Shown in pieces: positions 98 through 15,495 of a DNA stretch of 53,362 bases. The notes beneath the pieces are model-generated. The model had not been told where the DNA came from, ran no database searches, and worked only from the letters and a program-made list of their open reading frames with translations. The number at the start of each line of letters is the position of its first letter. Position 1 is the stretch's first letter. A program made the translations under genes and the position numbers. Source of the stretch: a virus; the IMG/VR virus record IMGVR_UViG_3300047160_009474, positions 1 through 53,362 of that record. One strand, 5' to 3'.

Positions 98-1143
98 CCG
101 ACCGGACCACCCGCTTAGTGCTGGATGATGCCTTTAAACAACTCACCGCTGAGGGGCTGGTCCCCAATACCGAAACGGCTCGGCGCGAATACACCAACCA
201 GCTGGGCCAATACAATCGCCGGGCTCAGGGGCTCATTGTGAAAATCTTCCGCGACACCGGCTTTGGACCTTTTGTCACTGCCGGGCGCACCTTCCTAGCC
301 ATGGGCTGGCGCATGGGGACCCTCTCCCCGGGAGTGCCCGCCACCAGTCTCAAGGCTGCCGCCGCCCTCCGCGCCAATGTCGCCACCAAATGGATCGGGG
401 CTTTCGCCCTGTTGGCCGCTGCCAATTATCTCCTGACCAAGCACCTGAAAAACGGCGGGGTCATGGGCCGACCGGGCACTAAGTTTGGCAACATTGATAT
501 GGGCTACAACGACAAGTCCGGGAAGATGGTTCAGTTCCCCCTGATGGATGCGCTGGGGTTGGGCAAGAGCCTCCATGTTGAGGGAATTCGCGGAGCGGTT
601 GATGCCTACCGGCTGGGGCTGACCCCGGGGGACATGGTCGATGCCGCCGCTCGCGACATCATCAACTCTGACATCGCGCCCTTCGCCGGTCCTCCGGTGA
701 AATTCGGAGTCACCGCCATCTCCGGTTATCCTGCTGCAGTGAATGTGGGCCGGGTCTCGACCATCGTTCCGCCCGGTCAGAGCCAGTTCGCCGAAAACCT
801 GAGTGAAGCGATGAAGCAGGCCAACCCCATGGTCACCGGGGCTCGCAAGCTTTATGCGGGTAAATCGGCTGCGGAAGTCCTCTCCACCCAAATCCCCCGC
901 TACTCTCTTGCTGCGGGCAAGACCGAGGCCACTGCCCAAAACTATCTCAAGATTGTCACCCTGGCCCAGGCCGCACAATACACCGATGGCATCGTGCATG
1001 ACGCACGGCGGCTCCCACCTGAGGAACGCCTCAAATTTGTCTCTGACCAGATCAATCGAATGGCCCCGGACCTGCGGCCCCATGCCTGGAAAGAAATGCG
1101 CCGTCGACGGGTCTTTGCCCTGCCTCAATCAATGGAGAAATAA
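1..1143 (+). CDS. 3' part (last 380 codons) of the giant ~2,280-aa virion-associated protein ORF that starts at 47566 and crosses the junction
   Basis: The frame from base 1 (QLSTIGAMRAPHGE...) is the same peptide that ends the window. Stop TAA is at 1141-1143. Track ORF 22..1143 is only the internal-Met remnant. Confidence 0.85.
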   Translation, partial: QLSTIGAMRAPHGEPATKVGKVLGTTGRLLSWTDRTTRLVLDDAFKQLTAEGLVPNTETARREYTNQLGQYNRRAQGLIVKIFRDTGFGPFVTAGRTFLAMGWRMGTLSPGVPATSLKAAAALRANVATKWIGAFALLAAANYLLTKHLKNGGVMGRPGTKFGNIDMGYNDKSGKMVQFPLMDALGLGKSLHVEGIRGAVDAYRLGLTPGDMVDAAARDIINSDIAPFAGPPVKFGVTAISGYPAAVNVGRVSTIVPPGQSQFAENLSEAMKQANPMVTGARKLYAGKSAAEVLSTQIPRYSLAAGKTEATAQNYLKIVTLAQAAQYTDGIVHDARRLPPEERLKFVSDQINRMAPDLRPHAWKEMRRRRVFALPQSMEK

Positions 1144-1148
1144 AAACT

Positions 1149-1346
1149 ATGAACATCAACCTGCACAACGCACTGGCGATTGCCATCCTCACCGTCCTGT
1201 CCCTGGCCTTCTGCGGCCTGTGGCATGATCGGGTCAACGTCTGGCAGTCCCTGAAGAAGACCGACACCATTGTCTTTGCCGTCATCTTCATCATCCTCTT
1301 CATGCTGGGCCAGCACTGGAACATCCTGCTCTTCGAACCCAGCTAG
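1149..1346 (+). CDS. Small membrane protein with two hydrophobic helices (holin-like size and position; function unproven)
   Basis: ATG lies 6 nt after the giant-ORF stop, with GGAGA about 10 nt upstream. Hydrophobic stretches AIAILTVLSLAFCGLW and IVFAVIFIILFML. Confidence 0.6.
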   Translation: MNINLHNALAIAILTVLSLAFCGLWHDRVNVWQSLKKTDTIVFAVIFIILFMLGQHWNILLFEPS

Positions 1347-1367
1347 AGCTAGATTTAGCGGACGGGT

Positions 1368-1424
1368 AAAAAAGGGCGGCACCAAGGGAGTTGCATGACT
1401 CAGGACTCGTTAATGATGCCGCCC
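1368..1424 (-). terminator. Putative intrinsic terminator for leftward (minus-strand) transcription
   Basis: GGGCGGCA (1374-1381) pairs with TGCCGCCC (1417-1424). On the minus strand the stem is followed by U6 (A6 at 1368-1373 on plus). The ~35-nt loop is unusually long. Confidence 0.4.
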
Positions 1425-1639
1425 ATAGCCAATCCATACGAACCATTCCATTGCGAACGAAGCACGGGTCCGTATGCCAATCGGTTCCCCCCTTTTTTAA
1501 AACTGGCGCGGGGTCATTACCAAACCGCCGTTCAACCTTTCGGTCAATGTAGTCCGATAAGCGGACCCCGCATTAAAGCATGGGGCTGGTGTAAGCCAAA
1601 CCCCACACGCTTATCACAAGTAGTTTCCCAAAATAATCT

Positions 1640-1659
1640 GTTGACAGATTAGTGTCAAC
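1640..1659. promoter_or_regulatory. Late-type inverted-repeat motif, perfect palindrome GTTGACA-gattag-TGTCAAC (contains TTGACA)
   Basis: 1636-1665 shares ATCTGTTGACA-N9-CAACGTGCGA with the copy upstream of the capsid gene (27521-27550, minus strand). Confidence 0.6.
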
Positions 1660-2265
1660 GTGCGATTGGGGCTTCATGGTTTACGAGACCCAGGATAGTC
1701 GCGAAGTTCAGATTTCGGTCTACGCGCCGAAACTTCAGACTATCCAAAGCGTAACCGAGGGGCGTCCTAGTCCGACCACCCTCAAACCCTCTGGTGCTCG
1801 TAACGCCAGAGGACATTTTGCCCCGGGTCGAAGTAACAGGGTTATCTTATCAGCAATGGTAATTCGAACCCCCTGTGACAAACCTTATCCGGGGCTTTCC
1901 GCACAAACCCATGGCCACCCTTTGGCCTGGCACTCCCACATCCTCAAAGGCATTGCTGCCCTTGGAAAGCGGGGAGTCCACCGGCCTAGGTCCCCCGCAG
2001 AGAGGATTAACACCTCCGCAGGATATCGACCGAATCCGCCCGCCCTGGACTGTGTCTGCGGAAGAAGTAAGAATCCCGGCTAAGGCCCTGCAGCCTCGTC
2101 ACAGATTATAGCCCTGGATTCGACCGGAGCAGTCGGAAGCTCTCCGACCCCGGAACCAACCATTGGGGGCGGTGTGTGTACAAGAGAAAGGCTCCCGGAG
2201 AATGCAACAACCCCAGGAGCCTCAAGGAAGCCAAACGAACCAATGACGTTAACCACCCTACCTCC

Positions 2266-2285
2266 GTCGCCACTCCACTGTCAAC
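2266..2285 (-). promoter_or_regulatory. Late-type inverted-repeat motif copy (minus-strand reading GTTGACA-gtggag-TGGCGAC)
   Basis: Minus strand GGTGTTGACAGtggaGTGGCgACGG closely matches the copy at 33229-33248, GGTGTTGACAGaataGTGGCaACGG. Confidence 0.5.
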
Positions 2286-2707
2286 ACCCCCCGAGGGGGC
2301 TCCCCCCAAAAGCCCGGACGCTAAGACCACAGATCGAAAGCACCGACACTCCCAGGGGACCCCCCTCCCACCAAGAGCTGGAGTTACCACAAAACCTACC
2401 CCCTGTCCAGTAACCCGTTGTGCCGCCAAATCTCCACCACCACGTCCTGCTGACGAAACCGCGCCTCGTTAATCCGTGAACGCACCTCCACCGGAAAGAC
2501 CCGCTCGGTCGCCATCGCCCGACACTCCCGCTGCCATAACCTCCCAACCGCAACCACATCCCGAGGCCGAGGTGCCCGCAACCGCACCGTTCTACGTGGA
2601 ACCGTTGCCATATCCCTGACACTGCCACATCGTCAGGCGAATCGTCAAAATACCCGGTGGATCGTCGGGGTGATCATCGCATAGCCCCCGGCGGCAAAAG
2701 GGATCAT

Positions 2708-2732
2708 GGGGTGGGGGGCGGTGGGGGTGGGG
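2708..2732 (+). other. Canonical G-quadruplex-forming tract GGGGTGGGGGGCGGTGGGGGTGGGG
   Basis: Four or more G-runs of at least 4 separated by 1-4 nt, read directly. It lies 19-43 nt beyond the stop of the minus-strand gene 2751..3215. Confidence 0.5.
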
Positions 2733-2750
2733 CTCGACACAAAGCATGCT

Positions 2751-3215
2751 TCATCCTGGCTCACTGGCTCCATTGTCACTCGACTGGCAACCATTGCTTT
2801 CCTGCTTTGGTGTAACTGGCTCAATATCAAGTACTTGTCCATTGTCGAGTGGACTACTACCAATAGTCGATTCTAGATTAAGTGACGAAAGCCCGTGATA
2901 CGTGGGGGGTTTTTCGGGGTGATACTGGCCCGGCCCGGGGATTTGGGCAACGTATGTCCATGCTCGGAATATGCGATCATACGCTCGGGTTAACCCGTCG
3001 TAAGCCTTAAAGCCAGTCGCTTTCAATAGGGCTTCATACAATCTCTCTTTCAATACGCTTAGGCGGGCAAGCTCCACCGCAATGGCTTCCGCACTGATTA
3101 CGGGTACTACCGGGCCGAGCGTACCGGGGTAAAGCTTCGCCAGTTTGTTCTGTTTCCGCTTTTCGTGGCCCCGGGCGGACATCTCCCGGGCATTTTGCGG
3201 AGTAAATAGCGGCAT
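2751..3215 (-). CDS. Hypothetical protein with a basic N-terminus (possible DNA-binding or small-terminase-like role, unverified)
   Basis: Track ORF 2751..3326 trimmed to the internal Met (MPLFTPQNAREMSARGHEKRKQNK...). Its acidic or polar C-terminus looks disordered. Confidence 0.45.
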   Translation of the reverse strand: MPLFTPQNAREMSARGHEKRKQNKLAKLYPGTLGPVVPVISAEAIAVELARLSVLKERLYEALLKATGFKAYDGLTRAYDRIFRAWTYVAQIPGPGQYHPEKPPTYHGLSSLNLESTIGSSPLDNGQVLDIEPVTPKQESNGCQSSDNGASEPG

Positions 3216-3317
3216 GCTGGGAATAGTCGCCCCGGGCCGCAGTGGGGTCAAGCAGTCGACTGGCTTTTGTGTCCCCCCAGGATGGAAAAATAAACCACGG
3301 TTGAGCGGGGTACACTG

Positions 3318-3346
3318 TTGACACATTGTGCCACATTCGGTAACTT
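3318..3346 (+). promoter_or_regulatory. Sigma70-like early promoter TTGACA-17-TAACTT with operator ATTGTGCCACATT in the spacer
   Basis: -35 at 3318-3323, -10 at 3341-3346, operator at 3325-3337. It sits at the head of the plus-strand early block. Confidence 0.6.
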
Positions 3347-3388
3347 AGGAGGAGTCGGGGCAATGAAGCCCGGCGAAACAAATAGAAA

Positions 3389-3397
3389 GTGACGCAG
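3389..3397 (+). promoter_or_regulatory. GTGACGCAG box 3 nt upstream of the start codon
   Basis: aatagaaaGTGACGCAGtttATG. The same extended context, aatagaaagtgacgcag, occurs at 4895-4911. Confidence 0.5.
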
Positions 3398-3400
3398 TTT

Positions 3401-3733
3401 ATGACATCGATCGAATTATTCAACGTTGCCCGGCAATTGGGCTTTCAACTCCAAAGTGTACAGAAATGCCCCGACTGTGGGCAGGTCTCAACTAAGCTCA
3501 CAAATTCAGTAGTGAAGTACTGCAAACATTGCGAGCATAATGTTACCGGAGGAGTTTGTTATCACGGTCAAACCGATGCCACAATTGATATGCTCGACTG
3601 CCAGGATTGTGGCGTTGCCCGGGCTGATTTTATCCGGGGCGCACAAGATACCATCCGGGAACAAATCACCTTTTTAGAGGATGTGCCTTGTGTCGACTAT
3701 GACGACTACAAAGCCAAATTCGCCCGCCTTTAG
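3401..3733 (+). CDS. Small Cys-rich (zinc-ribbon-like) early protein
   Basis: ATG at 3401; the track start at 3389 is the GTG inside the box. CxxC pairs: CPDCG, CKHCEH, CQDCG. Confidence 0.7.
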   Translation: MTSIELFNVARQLGFQLQSVQKCPDCGQVSTKLTNSVVKYCKHCEHNVTGGVCYHGQTDATIDMLDCQDCGVARADFIRGAQDTIREQITFLEDVPCVDYDDYKAKFARL

Positions 3734-3742
3734 ATAGTGCCC

Positions 3743-3786
3743 CACGTTGAGCCCCGGGCCACGCCTAGGGGTTCACTGTGACGCAG
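3743..3786 (+). repeat. Early intergenic hairpin element copy 1 (13-bp stem) ending in TGTGACGCAG
   Basis: CACGTTGAGCCCC (3743-3755) pairs with GGGGTTCACTGTG (3768-3780). It lies just after the stop at 3733. Confidence 0.75.
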
Positions 3787-3873
3787 TATTTAAACAATCA
3801 ATCGCCCGGGGCGCATGCCATCCGGGGACTTTTGTCCCCACTGCGTCACCATGCTCCTGGGCAAATCATGAGA

Positions 3874-3882
3874 GTGACGCAG
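3874..3882 (+). promoter_or_regulatory. GTGACGCAG box 1 nt upstream of the start codon
   Basis: gagaGTGACGCAGcATG. An inverted copy ACTGCGTCAC lies at 3840-3849. Confidence 0.5.
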
Positions 3883-3883
3883 C

Positions 3884-4609
3884 ATGATCAATTCGATCGA
3901 AACTATCCCCAGTAGGGGAATAAAACCCACAGTACTAAAACATCATCCCCGGTTCACCATTCCTGAACTTGTCCCCCTCAACGTGGGGCTTGCTTGGGAA
4001 TTAACTGGCGGACTATCGGAGCCCAGTAAAATGCCTTGCCATGGCTTTTCTACCCCTGCCCGGCGTTGCAACGTGGGGACAAAATTGCGCGAAGTCCCCG
4101 GTTCAATTTGTGAAATCTGTTACGCATTTGAACGTGGCAGGTATGGCTTTGAAGTAGTCCAGTTAGCTTTGGAGCGTAGGTACGAAGCTTTAATGAATGA
4201 GCCCCGGTGGACTGAAGCAATGGTCTGGCTCATTAATCGCTTTGAAAAGTCGGGGTACTTCCGCTGGTTTGATTCCGGGGATGTTCCTGACTTTGCCGCA
4301 TTGGAGAAGATCATTGAAGTAGTCCGCCAAACCCCCAGGATTAAACACTGGCTCCCTACCAAGGAATACGGGCTGATATCGCAATGGGTCAAAGCCCATG
4401 GGGCTTTTCCTAAAAACCTGACTGTACGCTTGTCCGCCTACATGGTGAACGGTGCCCCCCCTCGCGAGCTCGCCAAGCGTTTAGGGGTTTTAACATCCGG
4501 GGTTAAAAAACGGGGCTTTTCCTGCCCGGCATCATTGCAAGGCAATCAATGCGGGGAATGCCGCACCTGCTGGCAAAAACGGGGCAACGTTAACTATCAC
4601 AAGCATTAA
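3884..4609 (+). CDS. Cys-rich early protein, 241 aa (resembles, from memory, the phage 'gene product 88' type family; unverified)
   Basis: Long ORF with an ATG start. Motifs CEICYAFERGRYG, FRWFDSGD and a C-terminal CGECRTCW. Confidence 0.7.
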   Translation: MINSIETIPSRGIKPTVLKHHPRFTIPELVPLNVGLAWELTGGLSEPSKMPCHGFSTPARRCNVGTKLREVPGSICEICYAFERGRYGFEVVQLALERRYEALMNEPRWTEAMVWLINRFEKSGYFRWFDSGDVPDFAALEKIIEVVRQTPRIKHWLPTKEYGLISQWVKAHGAFPKNLTVRLSAYMVNGAPPRELAKRLGVLTSGVKKRGFSCPASLQGNQCGECRTCWQKRGNVNYHKH

Positions 4610-4614
4610 TTCCT

Positions 4615-4821
4615 ATGGAAGCCAATCAAAAGATCGTCAAATTGCGCCTTGTACGTAAAAGCGAAACAGCGGAATGGCTTGTGAAAGTTTGGGTGTGGGT
4701 AGGTGGCAAGTGGCTTTATTCGGAACTGGCAACGTATTACACGGATGATAAAGGTGACGCAGTAGCCACATTGTCAACCATGGCCCGGCAGTACTCCGCA
4801 CAAGGCTATTCACTTCTTTAA
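4615..4821 (+). CDS. Hypothetical small protein (68 aa)
   Basis: ATG lies 6 nt after the preceding stop. The sequence is non-repetitive and contains an internal in-frame GTGACGCAG (4754-4762). Confidence 0.6.
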   Translation: MEANQKIVKLRLVRKSETAEWLVKVWVWVGGKWLYSELATYYTDDKGDAVATLSTMARQYSAQGYSLL

Positions 4822-4902
4822 GCGCAATGATCACCCCATGCCCCCGGGCTGCAATCCCGTGGGGTATTGGGTGGCAATTACGCCACAAAAAACCAATAGA
4901 AA

Positions 4903-4911
4903 GTGACGCAG
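4903..4911 (+). promoter_or_regulatory. GTGACGCAG box 1 nt upstream of the start codon
   Basis: aatagaaaGTGACGCAGcATG. Confidence 0.5.
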
Positions 4912-4912
4912 C

Positions 4913-5227
4913 ATGAAGATTAGAAAACTCGCAACACCCCTCGGAAAGTACCGAGGCAAAAAGTACTATCGTTTCACCGTGTACTTTGAACAGTCTGGCA
5001 TAGGCTGGAATATCTCACGACCCATGGCGATCATTGCCAGTAGCGCGATCGAGGCATGCAACGCCATTCGGAACGAATTCGCCCATACGCTGGAGTACCC
5101 GGCGGAGTTTATTTGTTGCGGCCCGGCAGGGGGCAGGGTTGATCGCTTTGTCGGGTGGGAGTCAATGATCTGGGCTAAAATGGTTTCGACAATTCGCGGG
5201 CAGGAACAAATCCCACTACCCCTCTAA
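4913..5227 (+). CDS. Hypothetical protein (104 aa)
   Basis: ATG-initiated ORF directly behind the box. Confidence 0.65.
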   Translation: MKIRKLATPLGKYRGKKYYRFTVYFEQSGIGWNISRPMAIIASSAIEACNAIRNEFAHTLEYPAEFICCGPAGGRVDRFVGWESMIWAKMVSTIRGQEQIPLPL

Positions 5228-5231
5228 ACTT

Positions 5232-5606
5232 ATGACATCCAAACATAAAGAGCTCTTTTTTGTGAGCTCAACCGATGGTTGCCTACTGAGGCAAGATACT
5301 TGTCAGGTCGTACGCAAAAACTATTGCGGCCACCATATGCACATTGCGGACAATGAGGATTTTAAGGCTACACTCCGGGCCGGGCCTTACACTTTCCCGG
5401 GCTGCTATCCGCTCTTCTTTATCACCCGGGATAGTGGCGCAATTTGCTTCCCATGTGCTCAGAGGGAAGCCCGGCGAATAATGTCGAGCATTCGATCGGA
5501 TTGTAATGACGGGTGGCGCATAGAGGCATGCGACGTAAACTATGAGGATCCTCAACTCATGTGTGACCATTGCTCAAAGCCGATCCAATCAGCCTACGGA
5601 GATTAG
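5232..5606 (+). CDS. Cys-rich hypothetical protein (124 aa)
   Basis: ATG lies 5 nt after the preceding stop. Motifs FPGCYPLFFITRDSGAICFPCA and LMCDHCSKPI. Confidence 0.7.
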   Translation: MTSKHKELFFVSSTDGCLLRQDTCQVVRKNYCGHHMHIADNEDFKATLRAGPYTFPGCYPLFFITRDSGAICFPCAQREARRIMSSIRSDCNDGWRIEACDVNYEDPQLMCDHCSKPIQSAYGD

Positions 5607-5676
5607 CTAACACATGGGGCCAGGACAAACATTCTGGCCCCTTTCCGCATAGAACCAAAAACCAAAAAAGAGGAAA

Positions 5677-5685
5677 GTGACGCGC
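5677..5685 (+). promoter_or_regulatory. Variant box GTGACGCGC 4 nt upstream of a start codon
   Basis: aggaaaGTGACGCGCtgatATG. Confidence 0.4.
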
Positions 5686-5689
5686 TGAT

Positions 5690-5860
5690 ATGGAAACAGT
5701 ACCAAGCACACAGACGGGGCCGATCGAGAGTTCGATCGAGAGCTCGAACCCGATCGAGAGGCCCGATGTCTTTGCCATCTACCAGCTCCTCCGCAGGCAC
5801 AAGATTGAGGCTAAATATGTGGTCGAGTTTGCCCGCATTTTGCTCAACTCCACAGCGTAA
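5690..5860 (+). CDS. Small ORF (56 aa), below the track threshold
   Basis: METVPSTQTGPIESSIESSNPIERPDVFAIYQLLRRHKIEAKYVVEFARILLNSTA. It is preceded by the box variant and carries CGATCGAGAG three times. Confidence 0.45.
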   Translation: METVPSTQTGPIESSIESSNPIERPDVFAIYQLLRRHKIEAKYVVEFARILLNSTA

Positions 5861-5871
5861 TCTGATTGATT

Positions 5872-5915
5872 CACATTGAGCCCCGGGCTAAGGTCTAGGG
5901 GTTCACTGTGACCCA
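5872..5915 (+). repeat. Early intergenic hairpin element copy 2
   Basis: CACATTGAGCCCC (5872-5884) pairs with GGGGTTCACTGTG (5898-5910). It lies just after the stop at 5860. Confidence 0.75.
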
Positions 5916-5953
5916 AATAGGCCACATTAACATTAACCATCAAAACTAAGAAA

Positions 5954-5962
5954 GTGACGCAG
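5954..5962 (+). promoter_or_regulatory. GTGACGCAG box 3 nt upstream of the start codon
   Basis: aagaaaGTGACGCAGaatATG. Confidence 0.5.
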
Positions 5963-5965
5963 AAT

Positions 5966-6352
5966 ATGAGTGAACAAAAACCGAAACCCGATCAAGAGCT
6001 CGACCACAGACGATCGAGAGCTAACCCAATGAGCATTCTCGACTACATCAAGGCAGTGGATGAGGCCTTGGAACATCGCTACTGTGTCAGCATTGCGGAG
6101 GCTGGCATTGATGCGGCTGAGTTACTCACCGCCCAGGCGGAAGGCTGGAGCCCAGAGCAGTATGTCGAGTGGTTTGGAGAGAAGCACGACCTGACCGAGA
6201 AGAGCCAGTGGGACCTAGCTAAGGCCGTTGCGGAGTTAGCCCCCCAGTTCTGTTCCATGTGCGAGGGTCCCTTGATGCTGTTAGGAAGCTTGGGAAACCT
6301 CGCGCACTACCGGTGCCGTAATTGTGGCTTAGACTTTTCCCGTGGAGTGTAG
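5966..6352 (+). CDS. Hypothetical protein with a C-terminal zinc-ribbon-like motif (128 aa)
   Basis: ATG at 5966; the track start at 5954 is the GTG of the box. C-terminal CSMCEG...YRCRNCG. Confidence 0.7.
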   Translation: MSEQKPKPDQELDHRRSRANPMSILDYIKAVDEALEHRYCVSIAEAGIDAAELLTAQAEGWSPEQYVEWFGEKHDLTEKSQWDLAKAVAELAPQFCSMCEGPLMLLGSLGNLAHYRCRNCGLDFSRGV

Positions 6353-6360
6353 CCTACTCT

Positions 6361-6407
6361 CACGTTGAGCCCTTCTCAGGCTGGGGGGAGGGTTCACCGT
6401 GGCGCAG
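6361..6407 (+). repeat. Early intergenic hairpin element copy 3 (compensatory changes keep the stem)
   Basis: CACGTTGAGCCCT (6361-6373) pairs with AGGGTTCACCGTG (6389-6401). It lies just after the stop at 6352. Confidence 0.75.
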
Positions 6408-6512
6408 GCATTTTAACGCAGGTGACACATCATCATGCGGATGAAAAACAGAATAACCACAAACAACATCGATCGAGGCATCAAAACTGCCTACGGGGCG
6501 ATCGGGGGAAAG

Positions 6513-6521
6513 GTGACGCAG
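6513..6521 (+). promoter_or_regulatory. GTGACGCAG box overlapping a candidate GTG start
   Basis: ggaaagGTGACGCAGTGgca. Confidence 0.4.
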
Positions 6522-6703
6522 TGGCACAAGAGACAAAATACAAAGTATGGATTCATGTGACTAAAACCGATGCCTTTGATCCTGAGGATTCGACCGATAT
6601 CGCGGCAATGGATGAAGTAGCCTCGTTTCAAAGCGAAGACGAGGCCTTTCGATTTGTCGAGCGGCTAAAGTCGTTTCTGCCGATCATCGACCAGTCGGAA
6701 TAA
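6521..6703 (+). CDS. Small acidic hypothetical protein (~60 aa; start uncertain)
   Basis: In frame with track ORF 6365..6703, whose TTG start would run through the hairpin repeat. The GTG at 6521 abuts the box. The C-terminal part, VWIHVTKTDAFDPEDSTDIAAMDEV..., looks protein-like. Confidence 0.4.
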   Translation: MAQETKYKVWIHVTKTDAFDPEDSTDIAAMDEVASFQSEDEAFRFVERLKSFLPIIDQSE

Positions 6704-6717
6704 AGCAAAGATTCCAG

Positions 6718-6747
6718 TTGCAGGTTGTGCCACAACGAGCCTACTTT
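6718..6747 (+). promoter_or_regulatory. Sigma70-like promoter TTGCAG-18-TACTTT with perfect palindromic operator GTTGTGCCACAAC
   Basis: Operator at 6724-6736 abuts the -35. It lies upstream of the coupled gene set 6882-7805. Confidence 0.5.
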
Positions 6748-6881
6748 AGGACGTTTGTGACACAGGGACACATAGAGATAGACTTTTGTCCTGCTCCCAG
6801 GGAGCCGTGGGTTGCGCCCCGGTCTTTCAGGCTTTGCGGCCTGACTGCGTCACCCCCTGGGGGTAGGGCATTTTCGCATTT

Positions 6882-7049
6882 ATGAAAGCACCACAACTAC
6901 TCACACCCTTCGAACTGGCAATGCTGGCCGCACCATTCATAACCAACCTCAACCTGACCACCGAGGAAGCCTTCCTCCGGGCTCAGGAGCTGTTCTATGC
7001 GGCGGCGGATTACCTTCGGGAAAATGAAATACACCCAGATCAAAAGTAA
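6882..7049 (+). CDS. Small ORF (55 aa), below the track threshold
   Basis: MKAPQLLTPFELAMLAAPFITNLNLTTEEAFLRAQELFYAAADYLRENEIHPDQK. Its stop overlaps the next ATG (TAATG). Confidence 0.5.
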   Translation: MKAPQLLTPFELAMLAAPFITNLNLTTEEAFLRAQELFYAAADYLRENEIHPDQK

Positions 7050-7309
7050 TGCACCCGCCGGTTGGAAGCATGATCACCATTTGGCCTGAGGGTTCTCCCG
7101 AGGCCGAGGCCACTGCCACGCTATTGCTTCTCTCGGACAATCAGTTGAGTGCGGCCTTCGCCTTTGAGCACCTGCCCCGGTGGTACAACTCCTTTCCCGG
7201 GACCTTTATCAGCCTGGGCGAGGTGATCATGTTGGTGATCCGCCAGGACAAGACCGACCCCTGGACGGATCTGCGCGACGGTAAACACTACACAGTTAAA
7301 GAATTATGA
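7049..7309 (+). CDS. Hypothetical protein (86 aa)
   Basis: ATG overlaps the upstream stop, and its own stop overlaps the next ATG (ATGA). Confidence 0.6.
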   Translation: MHPPVGSMITIWPEGSPEAEATATLLLLSDNQLSAAFAFEHLPRWYNSFPGTFISLGEVIMLVIRQDKTDPWTDLRDGKHYTVKEL

Positions 7310-7485
7310 AAAGCCACCGACAAAAGCCCACCGACCGCAGAATGGACGCAGCGATCAAGGTTAAACTTCCCCGGCCCTGGTACCAAGATCTGAAGTTCCT
7401 GGCTGCCTGCGACTACGAGACAATTTCAATGCAGGTCCGCAGGGCGATTCGCCTATACCTCGATACCCGCCGGATCCACAAATGA
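7306..7485 (+). CDS. Ribbon-helix-helix (CopG/Arc-like) small DNA-binding protein (59 aa), below the track threshold
   Basis: AAIKVKLPRPWYQDLKFLAACDYETISMQVRRAIRLYL fits a beta-strand plus two helices pattern. ATGA overlaps on both sides. Confidence 0.55.
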   Translation: MKSHRQKPTDRRMDAAIKVKLPRPWYQDLKFLAACDYETISMQVRRAIRLYLDTRRIHK

Positions 7486-7805
7486 AAAAGTTTGGCCGAT
7501 ATATCCTGGTCGATGGCAAGCCGGTGCCTGAGCTGGACCTGATCAGGTGGGCCGAGTGGTTTGGTAAAACCTCCAATCGCGCTGTGGCCAGCACCCAGGT
7601 GGGTAAATCCAACATCGATACCTGCTTTCTGGGGATCGACCACAATTTCCACGTTAATGGACCCCCCATCCTCTGGGAGACACTCGTCTTTGGCGGACCA
7701 CTCCAGGGCACCATGGACCGTTGCGCCGGGTCCCGGGAACAGGCCGAGGCCATGCATGCCAGCATGGTTGAACGGGTCAAGCAGGCAAAAAAGATTTGTC
7801 CCTAA
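7482..7805 (+). CDS. Hypothetical protein (107 aa)
   Basis: ATGA-coupled to the RHH gene. Motif FLGIDHNFHVNGPPILWETLVFGG. Confidence 0.65.
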   Translation: MKKFGRYILVDGKPVPELDLIRWAEWFGKTSNRAVASTQVGKSNIDTCFLGIDHNFHVNGPPILWETLVFGGPLQGTMDRCAGSREQAEAMHASMVERVKQAKKICP

Positions 7806-7845
7806 CCGTCCGTAACCAACAACACAAAAAAAGAAAGGTCTGAAA

Positions 7846-8064
7846 ATGAACGATACACCAGCAACAAAACAACCCGACCAACGCATTCGCGCTTTGGTTT
7901 GGATGATCCTGTGCATGCTCGCCTATCTGGCCGTGATCACCGCCACTTACTTCTTATTCTTCCAGAGGGGTGACTGGCGCAGTGGGGTCGGAGTCTTTGG
8001 GGGCCTGTGCGTGATCACGTACCTACTGGCGATAGTTGCGCTCTTCAAACCTCACCGCCAATAA
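7846..8064 (+). CDS. Small membrane protein with two hydrophobic helices (72 aa)
   Basis: Hydrophobic stretches LVWMILCMLAYLAVITATYFLFF and VGVFGGLCVITYLLAIVALF. Confidence 0.65.
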   Translation: MNDTPATKQPDQRIRALVWMILCMLAYLAVITATYFLFFQRGDWRSGVGVFGGLCVITYLLAIVALFKPHRQ

Positions 8065-8088
8065 CCTCCTAACCGAGCTAACCCTATT

Positions 8089-8910
8089 ATGAAGAACAAA
8101 TTCTGTGCTGGCCAGTTTGGCGTTTCGATCCTGCTGGCTTCAATCTTTGCGACTCTCACCCCCATGCAGGCCGGTGCCGACAGTGGCGTGACAGTCAAAG
8201 TGCAAACTCTCACCGTCTATGTGCCTGCACCACCAGCTGGCCAACCGTGGCAACTGCCTGCCTCCATCCCGGAGAAGCTGCGAGGCAAAGTTCTGGAGCT
8301 CATCGGAATCACTCCCCCAGGCGTTCCCATAGTCATCGCGCCGGAAGGAACCTCACCCACCCTCATTCAACAGGCCAAAACCGCCGCCATAAAGCAGTCC
8401 ATTGTCACGCAGGGAGCCGGGCCTGCCGGGCCAACTCCACAGTCCTGCCTGGCCTGTGTTCTGGTCATCATCCTGGTCGTTGTCTGCGGAGTGGCCATCT
8501 ACGTGGTTTGGAAATGCGCTAAAAAGATAGACAAGGTCAACACCAACACCGGTCCAGGCGACCCGGCCATTCTGCGCCAGCTTCCACCGGCTCAACCCTC
8601 GGCCTTCCCCCCAACCTTAAGCGGTGACGACTCCAACTCGACCAATGCCTTCTGCACCATCGAAGGGACTACCGACCTCTCCGCTCCCAACTGGGCACCG
8701 ATGTTCACGCTGGTGTGTGTCACCAATGCTGACGGGATCCCCAGCGTTTATGCCATGAACCCGAGCAATATTCTGGTCGGTGCCTCATCGGTAATAACCA
8801 ACTCGGCCAACCCGGCTGAACTGGATACCACCACTCCGCTCAACCTGCCCTATCCAGGTCCAGGCCCAACACCACCCAACCTCTTCTTTCGGATGAACCT
8901 GCACAACTAA
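8089..8910 (+). CDS. Signal-peptide-bearing, membrane-anchored surface protein (273 aa); candidate lysogenic-conversion or exclusion gene
   Basis: N-terminal VSILLASIFATLTPMQAGA, a central helix CLACVLVIILVVVCGVAIYVVW, a Pro-rich linker, and a position next to the integrase. Confidence 0.65.
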   Translation: MKNKFCAGQFGVSILLASIFATLTPMQAGADSGVTVKVQTLTVYVPAPPAGQPWQLPASIPEKLRGKVLELIGITPPGVPIVIAPEGTSPTLIQQAKTAAIKQSIVTQGAGPAGPTPQSCLACVLVIILVVVCGVAIYVVWKCAKKIDKVNTNTGPGDPAILRQLPPAQPSAFPPTLSGDDSNSTNAFCTIEGTTDLSAPNWAPMFTLVCVTNADGIPSVYAMNPSNILVGASSVITNSANPAELDTTTPLNLPYPGPGPTPPNLFFRMNLHN

Positions 8911-8932
8911 AAGCAATCTCTTCTAAAAAGGG

Positions 8933-8975
8933 ACACCCCCTGGCTGATAAAGGCCAAGGGGTGTTTCTGTTTTTA
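8933..8975. terminator. Bidirectional intrinsic terminator between convergent genes
   Basis: ACACCCCCTGGC (8933-8944) pairs with GCCAAGGGGTGT (8953-8964) with one mismatch. A T-run follows at 8964-8975 and an A-run precedes at 8925-8930. Confidence 0.7.
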
Positions 8976-8987
8976 CTGCTGCCCTAC

Positions 8988-10199
8988 TCAGTCCTTCAGG
9001 ACAGCTTCGGGGGTTAACGCCCAGAACTTGGCAGCCTCCTCCGGTTTAACCAGTTTGCGGTAGTGGGAGAAGAGAATCCCCCAGTCGCCATGCCCCATTG
9101 CGGCCATGGTCTTGTCCACCCCGTGAATCGGCAGGAAGTTGGAGGCAAACGTGTGCCGCAGGACATCCTTGCCCCAACCATTCCAGAGGATTTTCTTGTA
9201 GTAATGGTGCTTGGTCGGATCCTTCTTGCGGGTCTTCTTGCCTTTGACGTTGGTTAACGTGATGAGCCCGGCTGCGGCCCGGACATCCCGGAACCGTTCG
9301 GCATGATTCTTGGGGTTGTACTCACCACCTGGGACCGCCAACCATGCCTTGAGTGTGTCATGGATTGGGACATAGCGTAACTGCTTGTCCTTGGCATGCG
9401 AGGCGGGGACTTCCAGCATGTCCCCCTGGATATGCACCTTGCTCAATTTGCGGGCTTCCCGTATCGGTCGGCACCCGGCAAACATCCCGCAAGCGATGAA
9501 GGGAATCAGGCCAGGATCGGTCTTCAAGGCGGCTCTCAGGAGTGCCCTGCATTGCTCCACAGTTAAGATATGAGGGGCTTTGTCGAACCCGGGCATCCTT
9601 TTCTTCGGAATCATCTTAAAAGCGTCCGTTGGCAGTTCTGTGACATACTTGTGTTTCTTGCAGTAACCAAAAAAGTTCTTCAAGGCGCACAGGTTGGCAT
9701 TCTTGTTCTGGGGGTGCATATCCTGCTGGGTAAACCACTGCCTGAGCATGTCAATGGTCACCAGGGCGACCTCCAGTTGCTCCCGGCCCCGGATGAACTT
9801 GTTAAGCTGGCACCGGTAAAACTTGAGCGTGTCCTTGGACAGACCGTCCGCCTTTTTATCGACCATGTATTCGTTAAAGGCATCCTCCAGGGTCCGCCGG
9901 GCCAGGGGTTTATTGGCAATGTTCTGGAAGGCCTGCCACACGGTGCGGAGCGCAATTCCCTTGCGGCTAATCTCCTCCAAGATCGTGAGCGTATCTAATC
10001 TGACTGCCGGGTTCATCTGGGTCCAAAACTCCGACTCCCCGTTCAGGGCCAGGACCGATTCCTGCTCGGCTTTGGCAGCCTCATACCCATCGAAGAACTT
10101 GCGCTGCCGTTTCTTCTCACCGTTCTCATCGGGCGTGAACCAGGACACCATGTATTGCTCTTTGTCCCGGACTTTTACTTTGTTGATCGTCACTTTCAT
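8988..10199 (-). CDS. int: Tyrosine recombinase (phage integrase), 403 aa
   Basis: C-terminal catalytic pattern ...LRHTFASNFL...GHGDWGILFSHYRK (R, HxxR, H, Y). N-terminal SAM-like or arm-binding region. Confidence 0.85.
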   Translation of the reverse strand: MKVTINKVKVRDKEQYMVSWFTPDENGEKKRQRKFFDGYEAAKAEQESVLALNGESEFWTQMNPAVRLDTLTILEEISRKGIALRTVWQAFQNIANKPLARRTLEDAFNEYMVDKKADGLSKDTLKFYRCQLNKFIRGREQLEVALVTIDMLRQWFTQQDMHPQNKNANLCALKNFFGYCKKHKYVTELPTDAFKMIPKKRMPGFDKAPHILTVEQCRALLRAALKTDPGLIPFIACGMFAGCRPIREARKLSKVHIQGDMLEVPASHAKDKQLRYVPIHDTLKAWLAVPGGEYNPKNHAERFRDVRAAAGLITLTNVKGKKTRKKDPTKHHYYKKILWNGWGKDVLRHTFASNFLPIHGVDKTMAAMGHGDWGILFSHYRKLVKPEEAAKFWALTPEAVLKD

Positions 10200-10432
10200 T
10201 TTTTAACCTTTCGTTTGATGTTGTTACTAACAGTTACAGTATGTGGCAGCAAAGTGACAACGGCAAGCAAAAGTTTGAGTTGGTCTGCAGCCGTTTCTAC
10301 GCAGTCGCGAATTCATGCACACGCTGGTACCATTGATTAAAAGCATGATCGCCTTTGTTTATGCGGGTGAAATCAATTTTCCGTAAGGTGCGATTCGATT
10401 TAATTTCCGGGATTGTCAGTTTCCTCAGGAAA

Positions 10433-10741
10433 TCACCGATTTTTCCCAGCATTGCCACTTTTGTTGACAGAATCGGCCCGGTAGAACCTAAAAACGAAGT
10501 ATCCAGGGACTGCGGCGAAGACCAAAAAGACCACCCCGCTGTAGCGGCGAGACTCGCGCCATTTTGCCTCAGGAACGTACTCGCCGCTCCAGCCGTCCAT
10601 CACCCCGCCATCGACCCTTGCGGCCTCCCCGCCAGTGCCCCACCACTCGACCCCGGCAGGGGTAAAACCGACCGAGAGAAAGTAACCAGCCAGGAGCAAA
10701 AGTCCGACCGTAACAACCATTAGTTTGGCTTTATCACTCAT
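10433..10741 (-). CDS. Membrane protein (102 aa) in the lysogeny region
   Basis: Hydrophobic stretches LMVVTVGLLLLAGYFLSVGF and VVFLVFAAVPGYFVFRF. Confidence 0.55.
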   Translation of the reverse strand: MSDKAKLMVVTVGLLLLAGYFLSVGFTPAGVEWWGTGGEAARVDGGVMDGWSGEYVPEAKWRESRRYSGVVFLVFAAVPGYFVFRFYRADSVNKSGNAGKNR

Positions 10742-10917
10742 GTGACCCTAAGTTCGGATTGTACTAAGGTGTAATAGGATCACTACGGAACAGGGATGCA
10801 ATAACCCTTTACACATAATCACTTGGTGTTACAGTCCTGTCGCGGGTATCCCTGTTGGAGAATCGACCATGAATATACCAAAAAACTATAGGTCCATGCC
10901 TGATGAACAGCTCAAGC

Positions 10918-11262
10918 TCATCTCTGCCGGGTTGCGGCAACGAGCTCGCGAGGTAGATGAATACGTCCGGTGCCGCCAGAAGCACCAGCACCGGCAATTA
11001 CCACCGCCGCCTCGCCACGTTCAGCCTGCTCAATGGCCGCATCGACTTCTTCTAAATTGATGCCGTGATTGTGCAGGTACTCGACCAGGGCATCCCGGGC
11101 CATCTGGCTCTCGGTGCTCTCCCTGATCACTGCCAAGGCAGCCCATCGCATCTTGAACTTCTCACCGACCCGGATGCGGATAAATTCGTCCTTAACTGCC
11201 TTTTTGAAGAATTTGCTGGAGAGTTTCTTCTGATTTTTCCGCGTTTTCATTGGTTTTTTCAT
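10918..11262 (-). CDS. Ribbon-helix-helix regulator (114 aa), candidate lysogeny repressor
   Basis: Trimmed to MKKPMKTRKNQKK.... RHH core FIRIRVGEKFKMRWAALAVIRESTESQMARDALVEYL. It is divergent from a second RHH gene. Confidence 0.6.
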   Translation of the reverse strand: MKKPMKTRKNQKKLSSKFFKKAVKDEFIRIRVGEKFKMRWAALAVIRESTESQMARDALVEYLHNHGINLEEVDAAIEQAERGEAAVVIAGAGASGGTGRIHLPRELVAATRQR

Positions 11263-11431
11263 CGTTGTTTGGTCGTTGTCGCCTGTCGGTGGATAAAAAG
11301 CTTGCACTTCTCTGTTTTGTACCACGTTTGGCCCACAAGTCAATCCGAATCACCAATGAAATCAGGGTAAGTGGCTGGTGAATAAGTACTTTTTGATTTT
11401 ATTTAAAAAACGTGCCACTCTAGTTGCACCT

Positions 11432-11614
11432 ATGGCGTACGAAGTTTTAAACGAAACCATTCGGACCAGGGTGTCGCAAAGAATGCGGCAGGCAGTGGAG
11501 GATCTGGCTAACCATCAAGGGATCAAGGTCTCTCGGCTGTGCCGACTGGCTTTCCATGAATATGTCCAGAAGAACACCCGCAAGGGCGGCAAGATAAAGG
11601 AGGTCGTCTGGTGA
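11432..11614 (+). CDS. Ribbon-helix-helix regulator (60 aa), candidate Cro-like antagonist
   Basis: MAYEVLNETIRTRVSQRMRQAVEDLANHQGIKVSRLCRLAFHEYV. It heads the plus-strand middle operon. Confidence 0.6.
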   Translation: MAYEVLNETIRTRVSQRMRQAVEDLANHQGIKVSRLCRLAFHEYVQKNTRKGGKIKEVVW

Positions 11615-11889
11615 GCCCCCCTGCCCCATTCCTGCAATCCTGGCTCAACCTGACCGAGGCTGCGGCCTGGATGCGGATAGCACCCCGCAAACTGGCGGCA
11701 TTATCCAAACACAGGGGCTCCCGGATACCTGCCGTCTGGTTTAACCGTCAGACTTGCATTTTCAACCCGGCAACCATCATCGCCAAACTGGCCGGTGAGC
11801 GCAATGTCGACCCGGAAATGATCCGGGCCATCCTCAACCAGGAACCAAATGGCAAGGACCATGAAGAACATCTACCCCTACAAACCTGA
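11611..11889 (+). CDS. Helix-turn-helix protein, excisionase/AlpA-like (92 aa)
   Basis: GTG start overlaps the upstream stop (GTGA). The WLNLTEAAAWMRIAPRKLAALSK motif is typical of Xis-type HTH. Confidence 0.5.
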   Translation: MSPPAPFLQSWLNLTEAAAWMRIAPRKLAALSKHRGSRIPAVWFNRQTCIFNPATIIAKLAGERNVDPEMIRAILNQEPNGKDHEEHLPLQT

Positions 11890-12169
11890 TGAAGCCGGGG
11901 AAGAGTTGCTGGCCTGGGCCAGGAATAACGACCCCCAGACTTCGCACGATGCGGCCCGGCGAATCACCCCGAAGGTCAATAAGCTGGAAGCCGAGACCGT
12001 CAAAGTCCTGAAGGAAAAACCAGAAGGCCTAACCACCCAGGAGATTTCGGATGCCACCGGCATCGAATATCGTTCGATAACCCCGCGCATGCAGCCCTTG
12101 GTCCGCAAGGGACTGGTGTTTAATTCGGGAGCCCGCCGGGATGGGCGCATCGTCTGGAAACCAGTATGA
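11849..12169 (+). CDS. Winged-helix (MarR-like) DNA-binding protein (106 aa)
   Basis: LTTQEISDATGIEYRSITPRMQPLVRKGLV... fits a wHTH pattern. It overlaps the upstream gene by 41 nt, so the start is uncertain. Confidence 0.55.
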   Translation: MARTMKNIYPYKPDEAGEELLAWARNNDPQTSHDAARRITPKVNKLEAETVKVLKEKPEGLTTQEISDATGIEYRSITPRMQPLVRKGLVFNSGARRDGRIVWKPV

Positions 12170-12693
12170 AAAACGCCGACATGCCGATGATGACTGCCGC
12201 TAGCTACGGCACATCGACTGACATTACCTGGTCGGAAAACACCACTGGCGCAACCGGGTGGGGACCTGCCGGGCCGCAGGGTTCACCTGGGCCACTCGCA
12301 CAGGAATTTCAACGATTGGCGCAGCAGTCGCACATCGATTACCGCTCGCCCCAGCGGGAACGCAGAATAGTTCAAACCGAAACATCAATCGAAAGTGAAA
12401 CACACATGTCATCACCCAACCGCAGAATTGTTCAAGTCTTCATCGCCGACCCCAATGAAAATGTCCCGCTGGAAGAGTCGGTGCTTTTCAAGGGCGACCA
12501 GAAGCTCACCGATGCCACCGACACTGAGCTCTTCTTTGAAGTGCCCATCGCCGACATCCTTAAAACCCACAACGAGAAACGAGTGAAGCTCCTGGATAAG
12601 GATGCCACTAAGAAAGCCGGGAAGGATGTCCTCCTGGACCCGGTAAAGATCCGCGAATTGAAAATGGTCGTCGTCACCATTGCCTCGTTCTAG
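12166..12693 (+). CDS. Hypothetical protein (175 aa)
   Basis: ATGA-coupled. The C-terminal half, RRIVQVFIADPNENVPLEESVLFKGDQKLTD..., looks globular. Confidence 0.6.
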   Translation: MKNADMPMMTAASYGTSTDITWSENTTGATGWGPAGPQGSPGPLAQEFQRLAQQSHIDYRSPQRERRIVQTETSIESETHMSSPNRRIVQVFIADPNENVPLEESVLFKGDQKLTDATDTELFFEVPIADILKTHNEKRVKLLDKDATKKAGKDVLLDPVKIRELKMVVVTIASF

Positions 12694-13157
12694 TGAACCG
12701 GAAACAGAAAATCTTCACCACTGAGAAGCAGGTCCTGGATGCGATCGAGGCCAACCTGAGCAAAGCCCAAACCAAATGGCAGGAGAGTTTCAAACACTGC
12801 GAGATATCCAGGGAGAAGTTCCTGCAGGCCGGTCAGTTCGAAGATGCTGCTTCCCTGAGCACCGGCTGGGTTCCCTGCCCCCAGTGCGGCGGCAAATCCA
12901 AGGGCAAGGTCAACACCGAGGACTTCTGTGTGGTCTGCCGGGGGATGGGCAAGGTCAATCGCGAGGCCCTGCTCTCTTATGCCGCCGGGATCCGCGAGCA
13001 GGCCAAATGGCACCGGGGCGAGGCCGACCGGCAGGCCCGTGGGGCAAAGCGATTGATCGACAAGAAAGGACCGGTCTTAAAGCAGGCCCTGGCCGAAATG
13101 CGAACCCCCAGTTTCGACTTTGCGCCTCAACTGCCGGTCGTCATGAAACCCGTATGA
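12693..13157 (+). CDS. Protein with a DnaJ-type CxxCxGxG zinc-finger pair (154 aa)
   Basis: CPQCGGKSKG...CVVCRGMGKV. GTG start overlaps the upstream TAG by 1 nt. Confidence 0.55.
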   Translation: MNRKQKIFTTEKQVLDAIEANLSKAQTKWQESFKHCEISREKFLQAGQFEDAASLSTGWVPCPQCGGKSKGKVNTEDFCVVCRGMGKVNREALLSYAAGIREQAKWHRGEADRQARGAKRLIDKKGPVLKQALAEMRTPSFDFAPQLPVVMKPV

Positions 13158-13429
13158 GAAAAGTCTGCAGAATGTGCGGTGAACAAAAGGACCCGTCACT
13201 TTTCACGGGACCCAATCCCAACATCTGCCTGCCCTGCGAGTGGTCGATTTACGAAGGGGAGGAAGCCAGGGACGATTCAAATGCATTTTCGGGGCCGCAG
13301 TGCCTGGCTCCCGCCGGGCAGAGCTCTCACCTCCCCGTAGGGCTCGGGTTTACTGACCTGCGGTCCCTCTCTTTTGGAACCGAAAACGCTACGGACGGTT
13401 CCGTTAGCCAGCGACGAAAGGGAGATTAA
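13154..13429 (+). CDS. Small zinc-ribbon-like protein (91 aa; the C-terminal half is suspicious)
   Basis: ATGA-coupled ATG at 13154. MRKVCRMCGEQ...ICLPCEW. The rest of track ORF 12776..13429 is an overlapping-frame artefact. Confidence 0.45.
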   Translation: MRKVCRMCGEQKDPSLFTGPNPNICLPCEWSIYEGEEARDDSNAFSGPQCLAPAGQSSHLPVGLGFTDLRSLSFGTENATDGSVSQRRKGD

Positions 13430-15483: not shown

Positions 15484-15495
15484 ACAAGGAACCAT

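Follow-up and report, generated by a model that had tools for sequence, protein, structure and literature searches.

The 1.4-kb interval between positions 1347 and 2750 of the phage genome described here is truly non-coding DNA in a variable cargo slot, and it is made up of four zones rather than one element. It is tentatively read, at somewhat less than even confidence, as a non-coding unit between two gene blocks that is transcribed convergently and has a regulatory or insulating role, while a large RNA with catalytic or scaffold function is unlikely. This reading draws on an absence of coding signal, a local excess of stable hairpins, a terminator-shaped element at the left edge, an extreme base composition toward the right edge, and two copies of a newly recognized directional motif that face each other across the hairpin zone.

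Genome setting and coding potential

The window analyzed, a stretch of 53,362 nucleotides, represents a circularly assembled phage genome of 53,265 bp, the contig ends overlapping cleanly by 97 nt and a 2,280-aa ORF running unbroken over the circular junction (47566..1143). The phage is temperate, with an integrase gene 6 kb and a large terminase gene 37 kb from the gap. It is a singleton, and the protein clusters of the genes flanking the gap each hold one member. The left bound is a 65-aa membrane-like gene (1149..1346, plus strand), the final gene of a rightward late block, which follows the gene for the 2,280-aa giant virion protein. The right bound is a 154-aa orphan gene (2751..3215, minus strand; P0013 of the source annotation), the product of which is predicted to form three helices and a disordered tail and has no match in Pfam, PHROG, PDB-sequence or Foldseek searches. 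The slot 3' of the giant-protein gene varies, with relatives holding other cargo or a short terminator-like hairpin at this location. Relatives were reached through the C-terminus of the giant protein (12 proteins and 37 loci, at most 57% identity) and through the GP88 neighbour (44 loci, at most 56% identity), and a scan of genome contigs for relatives found none. No DNA or protein was common to the gap or its neighbours and the 139 loci fetched.

The preliminary description of this DNA had seen no credible ORF between 1347 and 2750, and coding scores, homology, the source annotation and an AlphaFold model all agree. The longest ORF-poor stretch on a permissive gene map is 1347-2705, and a 3-periodic Markov model trained on the long genes of the phage detects no positive coding frame across 1347-2750; the same model gives the flanking 65-aa gene +0.33 per codon. 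When the fifteen gap ORFs were concatenated and searched against 5.8e9 protein clusters, zero matches were returned, self match included. As P0001 and P0013, both called proteins of the window, are present in that database, the missing self match indicates that the source annotation called no gene in the gap. The longest gap ORF, at 143 aa, likewise had no homolog among 1.84e9 representatives. In its 135-aa form (1676-2083, plus strand, from ATG 1676), it is marginally the best of its six frames and its coding score is still negative. Its AlphaFold model (pLDDT 46) contains two 3-residue helical turns and is otherwise coil, with no helix or strand of reportable length, whereas the 154-aa orphan modelled in the same single-sequence mode forms its three helices at pLDDT 70-84. 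A 58-aa ORF on the minus strand of the gap scores -0.41, and another frame scores better at that place. No 3-nt periodicity is found in 1501-2160 (p 0.37); weak periodicity is seen in 2250-2620 (permutation p 0.002), with C favoured at codon position 2.

Hairpins, terminator and composition of the gap

The whole of 1347-2750 had been taken to be hairpin-dense, which is borne out for about 1500-2160 only; the right part, 2161-2640, is unstructured. All seven helices listed in the preliminary description are present at their coordinates. Perfect stems of at least 7 bp occur at 19.7 per kb in 1501-2160 versus 4.9 per kb genome-wide and 5.1 per kb in 2161-2750. The minimum free energy of 1660-2160 corresponds to a z-score of -3.05 on the plus strand and -3.09 on the minus strand, with none of 100 shuffles folding equally well, and z-scores lie between about 0 and +2 for windows within 2000-2800. 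The hairpin-dense core (1661..2160), which has neither 3-nt periodicity nor coding potential, holds two hairpins that are individually significant, 1693-1745 (z -3.8) and 1820-1895 (z -3.3), together with the weaker hairpins 1788-1812 and 2124-2153, both of marginal significance; those at 1969-1998 and 2016-2061 are at chance level. To the left of the core lies a long hairpin with a GAAA apical loop (1508..1571, minus strand; -31.7 kcal/mol, z -2.9, matched by 2/200 shuffles). Its significance is limited to the minus strand, as the plus-strand form reaches only -21.9 kcal/mol (z -1.2, 21/200 shuffles), the 10 kcal/mol advantage arising from G-U pairs.

The fold stability of the gap is strand-symmetric and derives mainly from Watson-Crick stems. 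Since stability is equal on both strands, no preferred RNA strand is indicated, and this symmetry fits DNA palindromes as well as RNA. Hairpin density is also not unique to the gap, because the early region at 3200-4400 is equally dense. The palindromic word CCCGGG, considered as a source of hairpins as a by-product, occurs as a single copy in the hairpin zone and is thereby dismissed for the gap, and the likeness of 1812-1850 to a repeated early-region element is at chance level.

At the left edge, the minus strand bears an intrinsic-terminator-like hairpin (1368..1424) at a distance of 22 nt from where the 65-aa late gene stops. Its 11-bp G+C-rich stem (1424-1414 / 1384-1374) leads directly into U6, which corresponds to the A-run 1368-1373 of the plus strand. 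It folds at -24.1 kcal/mol (z -2.3), with 6/200 shuffles as good. A G+C-rich stem and a direct U-run are what mark an intrinsic terminator in sequence, and both are found here around an unusually long loop of 29 nt, because of which a simple terminator scan missed the hairpin. Upstream of it on the same strand, a sigma-70-like site (1658-1630) matches at 10/12 positions, as one of four such sites genome-wide, a number that is not enriched over shuffles.

The right part of the gap is of a different nature. The tract 2161..2640 is, on the plus strand, rich in C and poor in G and T (C 40%, G 21.5%, T 13.5%) to a degree unmatched in the genome, where its GC skew (-0.33) and A+C content (66%) are both the extremes. 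Its weak 3-nt periodicity places C at codon position 2 of plus frame 1. By composition and unstructuredness, the tract may be rut-like for a rightward RNA, or else it may be a decayed Pro/Thr/Ala/Ser-rich coding remnant. It is followed by a G-run, GGGGTGGGGGGCGGTGGGGGTGGGG (2708..2732, plus strand), the strongest G-quadruplex-type motif of the genome; the minus strand is C-rich here, right after the stop of the 154-aa gene.

A 22-bp directional motif shared with late genes

A 22-bp directional near-palindrome recognized here for the first time, TGTTGACA-N6-TGnCAACG, is present in six copies, in the gap and elsewhere in the genome. With a position weight matrix the six sites score 30-36 bits and no other site scores above 17, and strand-matches to the motif number 10 versus 0.44 expected, a count reached by 0/100 shuffles. 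Two copies lie in the gap. S1 (1639..1660, plus strand) faces right, into the hairpin zone, and S2 (2265..2286, minus strand) faces left, into the same zone and convergent with S1; together they form an inverted pair of 22 nt and 77% complementarity, with 604 bp between them. The other four copies are all on the minus strand. One (27526..27547) is intergenic and upstream of a capsid-like gene (25966-27393); another (28886..28907) comes after the stop (28910) of an upstream ORF and before a scaffold-like gene, whose ATG 28869 is 16 nt downstream; a third (33228..33249) is intergenic and upstream of the gene 32059-33090; and the last (39919..39940) precedes the large-terminase gene (38118-39875) by 44 nt. 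All four precede minus-strand late genes and point in the same direction as those genes, and three are clearly intergenic. Five of the six sites are clearly non-coding, the exception being the terminase-upstream copy, which sits inside an uncharacterised 100-aa ORF (39892-40194, minus strand) that is possibly not a real gene.

Repeated, asymmetric and oriented with the genes downstream, these sites have the properties of scattered directional operators or stoperators, with a binding protein that is only putative. No sigma-70-type -10 hexamer is found at the proper spacing from the motif, which counts against the preferred reading; instead of a promoter, the sites may represent operators or roadblocks. 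No structured leaders were found downstream of the late copies. The 139 loci of other phages hold zero copies, and use of the motif as a probe for relatives in IMG/VR gave 58 single chance matches, the sole contig with two matches being an end-overlap duplicate. The motif is known from its six sites in this phage only, which counts against the reading favoured here.

Scattered directional repressor sites are typified by the stoperators of mycobacteriophage L5 and the C1 operators of P1. Like these, the motif is multi-copy, located in or beside short intergenic regions and oriented with transcription; unlike these, it takes the form of a near-palindrome of 22 bp that occurs just six times, and its repressor is putative. 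Coliphage 186 provides a convergent-promoter switch, pR/pL, in which promoters placed tens of bp apart act by transcriptional interference. The gap resembles this switch in having two control elements that face each other at the boundary of a lytic and a leftward unit, and differs in that S1 and S2 are 604 bp apart and only putative promoters.

Readings of the gap

Because S1 and S2 face inward and the remaining copies precede late structural genes in the same orientation, the hairpin zone (about 1500-2160) is most likely a non-coding unit that is transcribed convergently and governed by the late-gene control of the phage itself. By this inference, S1 and S2 would drive converging transcripts of the zone. 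Of the two RNAs, the leftward one, predicted at about 0.9 kb, would end at the terminator 1424-1374 and its U6, just short of running antisense through the late block. The rightward one would enter the C-rich, G-poor and unstructured, Rho-utilisation-like tract and then the G-run before becoming antisense to the 154-aa gene. Rut sites such as lambda tR1, which span some 80 nt or more of RNA, belong to Rho-dependent terminators, and the predicted RNA of 2161-2640 would likewise be C-rich, G-poor, unstructured and downstream of an operon end; the tract differs in being 480 nt long. The likely role of such a unit would be in sense/antisense RNA, in transcriptional interference and in shielding each block from read-through.

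Antisense and small regulatory RNAs are found at module boundaries of several phages, as with lambda OOP, P22 sar, the P1 c4 and P4 CI RNAs and prophage sRNAs. The gap is similarly non-coding, it adjoins a gene read leftward where the late and early regions of this temperate phage meet, and its minus strand bears a promoter-like site (1658-1630) and a canonical terminator, both predicted. In contrast to these systems, the RNAs predicted for the gap would be of far greater length (0.26-0.9 kb), and they share no sequence similarity with any of them. A comparison of the gap with the remaining genome revealed no significant complementarity, and hence no target, which counts against the preferred reading. 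It is quite improbable that the zone of about 1660-2265, maybe extending to 1367, encodes a fully overlapping pair of sense/antisense structured RNAs of 0.6-0.9 kb under the late-gene control element, a pair that would constitute an RNA-based regulatory or immunity module without a relative in Rfam or the public sequences searched.

The gap might instead act at the level of DNA or termination only, as a buffer in which the hairpins serve as terminators or pause sites and the motif pair as stoperator-kind repressor roadblocks that halt read-through from both sides, with no functional RNA made from the gap. Such a buffer would account for the strand-symmetric and largely Watson-Crick stability of the hairpins, for motif copies oriented with transcription arriving from either side, for the minus-strand terminator at the left edge and for the C-rich tracts that confront each incoming transcript, and at the corresponding convergent junction relatives hold nothing more than a compact hairpin. 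It is nonetheless unlikely, given that 1.25 kb far exceeds the needs of termination, that most hairpins of the zone have no following U-run and that the other four motif copies are upstream of genes, in promoter- or operator-like positions, rather than at the ends of operons. It is unlikely as well that the gap holds orphan or decayed coding sequence. By this account the ORF 1676-2083 and/or the small minus-strand ORFs would be real but atypical, or the C-rich tract would be what is left of a Pro/Thr/Ala/Ser-rich gene in plus frame 1 (2176-2619, with one in-frame TAA). ATG 1676 follows S1 at a distance of 15 nt, a spacing that resembles the 16 nt at the scaffold-like gene; this favours translation of the longest gap ORF and counts against the preferred reading, and the marginal lead of the 135-aa frame and the periodicity of 2250-2620 point the same way. 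Negative coding scores, the aperiodic hairpin zone, the nearly all-coil 135-aa model, the 58-aa ORF falling outside its best frame and the lack of an annotated gene argue against coding, while the absence of homologs is weak evidence against it because the neighbouring real genes are orphans too.

The preliminary description had proposed a single large ornate non-coding RNA of the kind of GOLLD, ROOL and HEARO, which would now have to represent a new family. With GOLLD, ROOL, HEARO, OLE and raiA the gap shares a long, phage-borne, ORF-free stretch with many local helices, several individually significant, and about 0.65-0.8 kb of it is significantly stabler than shuffled sequence. Unlike these RNAs, it matches no covariance model: the whole window has zero gathering-level matches to any family of Rfam 15, so that the segment stays unassigned as it had been, and at E-values up to 10 only chance-level matches appear, to the nematode sRNA ceN72-3 (25.4 bits, gathering score 38) and, below it, to the archaeal snoRNA sR14 (10.9 bits, gathering score 38). 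No tRNA or tmRNA was detected by ARAGORN or Rfam. No homologs emerged when GenBank phages, both near and distant, and plasmids were searched by blastn, nor when IMG/VR was scanned with exact seeds from two gap hairpins, while known large RNAs are widespread. As only about 0.65 kb, or half of the claimed span, is structured, stability is equal on the two strands and the coding early region is as rich in hairpins, the proposal of one 1.4-kb RNA is not supported and a single ornate RNA is very unlikely. Highly improbable, too, is an origin of the gap as the scar of a mobile element (a MITE-like insertion whose terminal inverted repeats would be the 22-bp sites) or as an artefact of chimeric joining during metagenome assembly. 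The inverted S1/S2 pair, the outlying composition of 2161-2640 and the variability of the slot among relatives would suit such an origin, but the flanks bear no target-site duplication, the genome and the 139 loci hold no further copy, and the contig closes cleanly over 97 nt with the 2,280-aa ORF continuous over the junction. Four more single copies upstream of late genes mark the motif as a control element of the phage, as opposed to the end of a transposon.

Other identities were rejected. In the closest relatives, a 424-aa scaffold-like gene follows the giant gene, and a pseudogene of it was considered; tblastn places its counterpart at 27.7-28.9 kb, and its sole match in the gap is chance low-complexity. 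A replication origin was dismissed as iterons are absent, and the whole-genome GC-skew profile is uninformative; the gap likewise holds no CRISPR array and no tandem or iteron repeats. Genome ends or a pac site are judged unlikely from the distance to the terminase gene, and attP from the distance to the integrase gene and the lack of a visible tRNA fragment. A MITE or insertion sequence was set aside on the same missing duplication and further copies, despite the inverted pair 1639-1660 / 2265-2286.

If the gap is a mere spacer or a decayed cargo slot, it is an ordinary finding, and it would show that DNA without ORFs and rich in hairpins, when met in a singleton phage from a metagenome, is alone no evidence for a GOLLD-like RNA. 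If it is a convergent, late-controlled non-coding unit, it would represent a sense/antisense RNA module of unusual length where the late and early regions of a phage meet and, because the 22-bp motif marks late genes, would offer a handle on the wiring of gene expression in an otherwise unannotatable lineage of soil phages.

Genomic setting and coding content of the gap

The contig is circularly closed, with bases 1-97 identical to 53266-53362, and removal of this 97-nt overlap gives a genome of 53,265 bp. A polyvalent-type virion protein of 2,280 aa, bearing a DUF6884 domain at residues 837-962, is encoded by a single giant ORF that crosses the contig junction (47566-53265 continuing 1-1143). 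Downstream lie a 65-aa membrane-like gene with a strong coding signal (1149-1346), the gap under study (1347-2750), and a minus-strand ORF (2751-3326; P0013 in the source annotation, 154 aa, 2751-3215), beyond which are rightward early genes, including one of the GP88 family (3884-4609, plus strand). PHROGs matches to an integrase (8988-10199) and a large terminase (38118-39875), both on the minus strand, indicate a temperate tailed phage; family matches were obtained for few other proteins of the window. Most genes have no Shine-Dalgarno sequence in front of them, perhaps a sign that the host makes little use of it; one upstream string, AAAGGTTAA(A/C)AAATG, is common to the integrase gene and the one at 17547 (10200-10215, 17530-17546).

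The preliminary description held that 1347-2750 lacks any credible ORF, and the coding model, protein searches, AlphaFold and the source annotation all bear this out; the gap is real and exceeds every other ORF-free stretch in the genome. After training on 18 long ORFs of the phage, a 3-periodic Markov model regained the true frame for most genes and returned no positive coding frame in 1347-2750, and no uncovered stretch on a permissive gene map is longer than 1347-2705. Fifteen ORFs from the gap (42-143 aa), joined into one query, matched nothing among 5.8e9 protein clusters, themselves included; since P0001 and P0013 from the source annotation sit in that database, the annotation evidently called no gene in the gap. 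Exhaustive scanning of 1.84e9 representatives with HMMER likewise left the 143-aa ORF without a match. Missing homologs alone are weak evidence here, because the real small genes of this phage are also orphans. AlphaFold rendered the 135-aa ATG-initiated form as almost pure coil (pLDDT 46) and the equally orphan 154-aa neighbour as three helices (pLDDT 70-84).

Structure and composition of the four zones

In zone A (1347-1500) lies a putative canonical terminator on the minus strand, its 11-bp G+C stem (arms 1424-1414 and 1384-1374) followed by U6. Zone B (1501-2160) is the hairpin zone, in which no 3-nt periodicity was detected. The unstructured zone C (2161-2640) is the genome extreme in GC skew (-0.33, 3.4 SD off the genome mean) and in A+C content (66%, 4 SD), and displays weak 3-nt periodicity, with C at codon position 2 of plus frame 1 (permutation p 0.002-0.007). 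The G-rich zone D (2641-2750) contains the best G-quadruplex-type run of the genome (2708-2732).

All seven helices listed in the preliminary description are found in the sequence, and its account of the gap as hairpin-dense applies to the left half, about 1501-2160, but not to 2161-2750. Perfect stems of at least 7 bp occur at 19.7/kb in 1501-2160, compared to 4.9/kb genome-wide and 5.1/kb in 2161-2750, and 200-nt z-scores over 2000-2800 are about 0 to +2. The MFE z-score of 1660-2160 is -3.05 on the plus and -3.09 on the minus strand (0 of 100 shuffles folding as well), and the 500-nt window at 1501 ranks second and third among 46 strand-windows across the genome. Hairpins 1693-1745 and 1820-1895 are individually significant, and 1508-1571 is so when folded as the minus strand but not as the plus; 1969-1998 and 2016-2061 fold no better than chance. 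As the stability excess is equal on both strands, no single RNA strand is indicated. Rfam 15 gave no gathering-level match across the whole window, and at E up to 10 two sub-threshold chance matches; ARAGORN returned none. No membership of GOLLD, ROOL, HEARO, OLE, tmRNA or RNase P was found, and the GOLLD-like interpretation is not supported.

A second zone at least as hairpin-dense as the gap overlaps real early genes at 3190-4400, with 14 perfect 7-bp stems per 660 nt; 3401-3900 (plus strand) has the most extreme MFE z-score of the 46 strand-windows tested (-6.0), and CCCGGG is concentrated in 2934-3805 (7 of 39 genome copies). The early region also carries nine of the ten copies, at no more than one mismatch, of the motif (A/G)GTGACGCAG (2.9 expected; 0 of 100 shuffles), exemplified within 3388-6854 by those at 3388, 3777, 3841 (minus), 3873, 4753, 4902, 5953, 6512 and 6845 (minus). 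Several stand 1-3 nt ahead of the ATG in rightward early ORFs, frequently in the form AGAAAGTGACGCAG. The motif is a candidate for an early-gene operator, a promoter or a site of translational control. An element of about 40 nt, TTGAGCCCCGGGC...TAGGGGTTCACTGTGAC(G/C)CA, is repeated at 3747-3786 and 5876-5916, with a weaker third copy near 6364-6408; its 21-nt core occurs twice at up to 2 mismatches, against 0 expected.

A directional motif common to the gap and late genes

The most useful new fact is a 22-bp late-gene motif whose two gap copies are aimed into the hairpin zone. This directional near-palindrome, TGTTGACA-N6-TGnCAACG, was uncovered via a TTGACA-containing repeat and occupies six sites (10 strand-matches at up to 3 mismatches, 0.44 expected, with 10 reached in 0 of 100 shuffles) that score 30-36 bits by PWM, the next best site scoring 17. 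Of the six, four are found upstream of late genes on the minus strand (the capsid-like, the scaffold-like, a 343-aa and the large-terminase gene), all reading in the direction of their genes; three are clearly intergenic, and the one before the terminase shares sequence with an uncharacterised 100-aa ORF as well. The remaining two, S1 (1639-1660, rightward) and S2 (2286-2265, leftward), face each other on either side of zone B. No sigma-70-type -10 hexamer was found at proper spacing after the motif, which may therefore serve as an operator, as an activator site, or as a promoter of a non-sigma-70 kind. The first 81 fetched loci contain no copy, and IMG/VR yielded single chance matches only, besides one end-overlap duplicate. 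A degenerate seventh match (2771-2792, minus strand, 13.4 bits) lies in the 154-aa gene, within its 3' end. Midway between S1 and S2, the longest plus-strand gap ORF (TAA 2081-2083) and a 58-aa minus-strand ORF (stop 2080-2082) have overlapping stop codons (cTAa, 2080-2083).

Relatives and interpretation of the gap

The phage is a singleton. Relatives recovered via the C-terminal 373 aa of the giant protein reach at most 57% identity, and no DNA or protein common to them and the gap or adjacent early genes was found. The giant gene is followed by a 90-aa gene, a 424-aa scaffold-like gene and a capsid gene in three loci (L004-L006), by a 214-aa helix-turn-helix-like gene and then a short hairpin junction in L001, by a 243-aa gene in L007, and by directly convergent genes in L012. 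Two distant C-terminus relatives from one ENA assembly (L002, 7747-8862; L003, 2502-3599) lie near TnpB/Cas12f-like genes (OrfB_IS605, Cas12f1-like_TNB). The differing content marks this position as a variable cargo slot, and the additional 1.25 kb of non-coding DNA is peculiar to this genome.

The best-supported reading, adopted tentatively, sees the gap as a non-coding unit that is transcribed convergently under late-type control. Rather less likely is a buffer that acts purely by termination or roadblock and makes no functional RNA. An orphan or decayed coding sequence is also unlikely; in its favour are the periodicity of zone C and the placement of S1 15 nt before ATG 1676, much like the motif 16 nt before the ATG of the scaffold-like gene. 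One new large ornate RNA seems very improbable, and least probable of all is a mobile-element scar or assembly artefact.

For the convergent non-coding unit, we infer transcription, termination mode and function alike. The leftward RNA would be halted by the terminator of zone A, and rightward RNA would enter the rut-like C-rich tract and G-run ahead of antisense entry into the 154-aa gene. The finding is of modest interest; the role of such a unit would be regulatory or insulating, separating the late block from the leftward gene.
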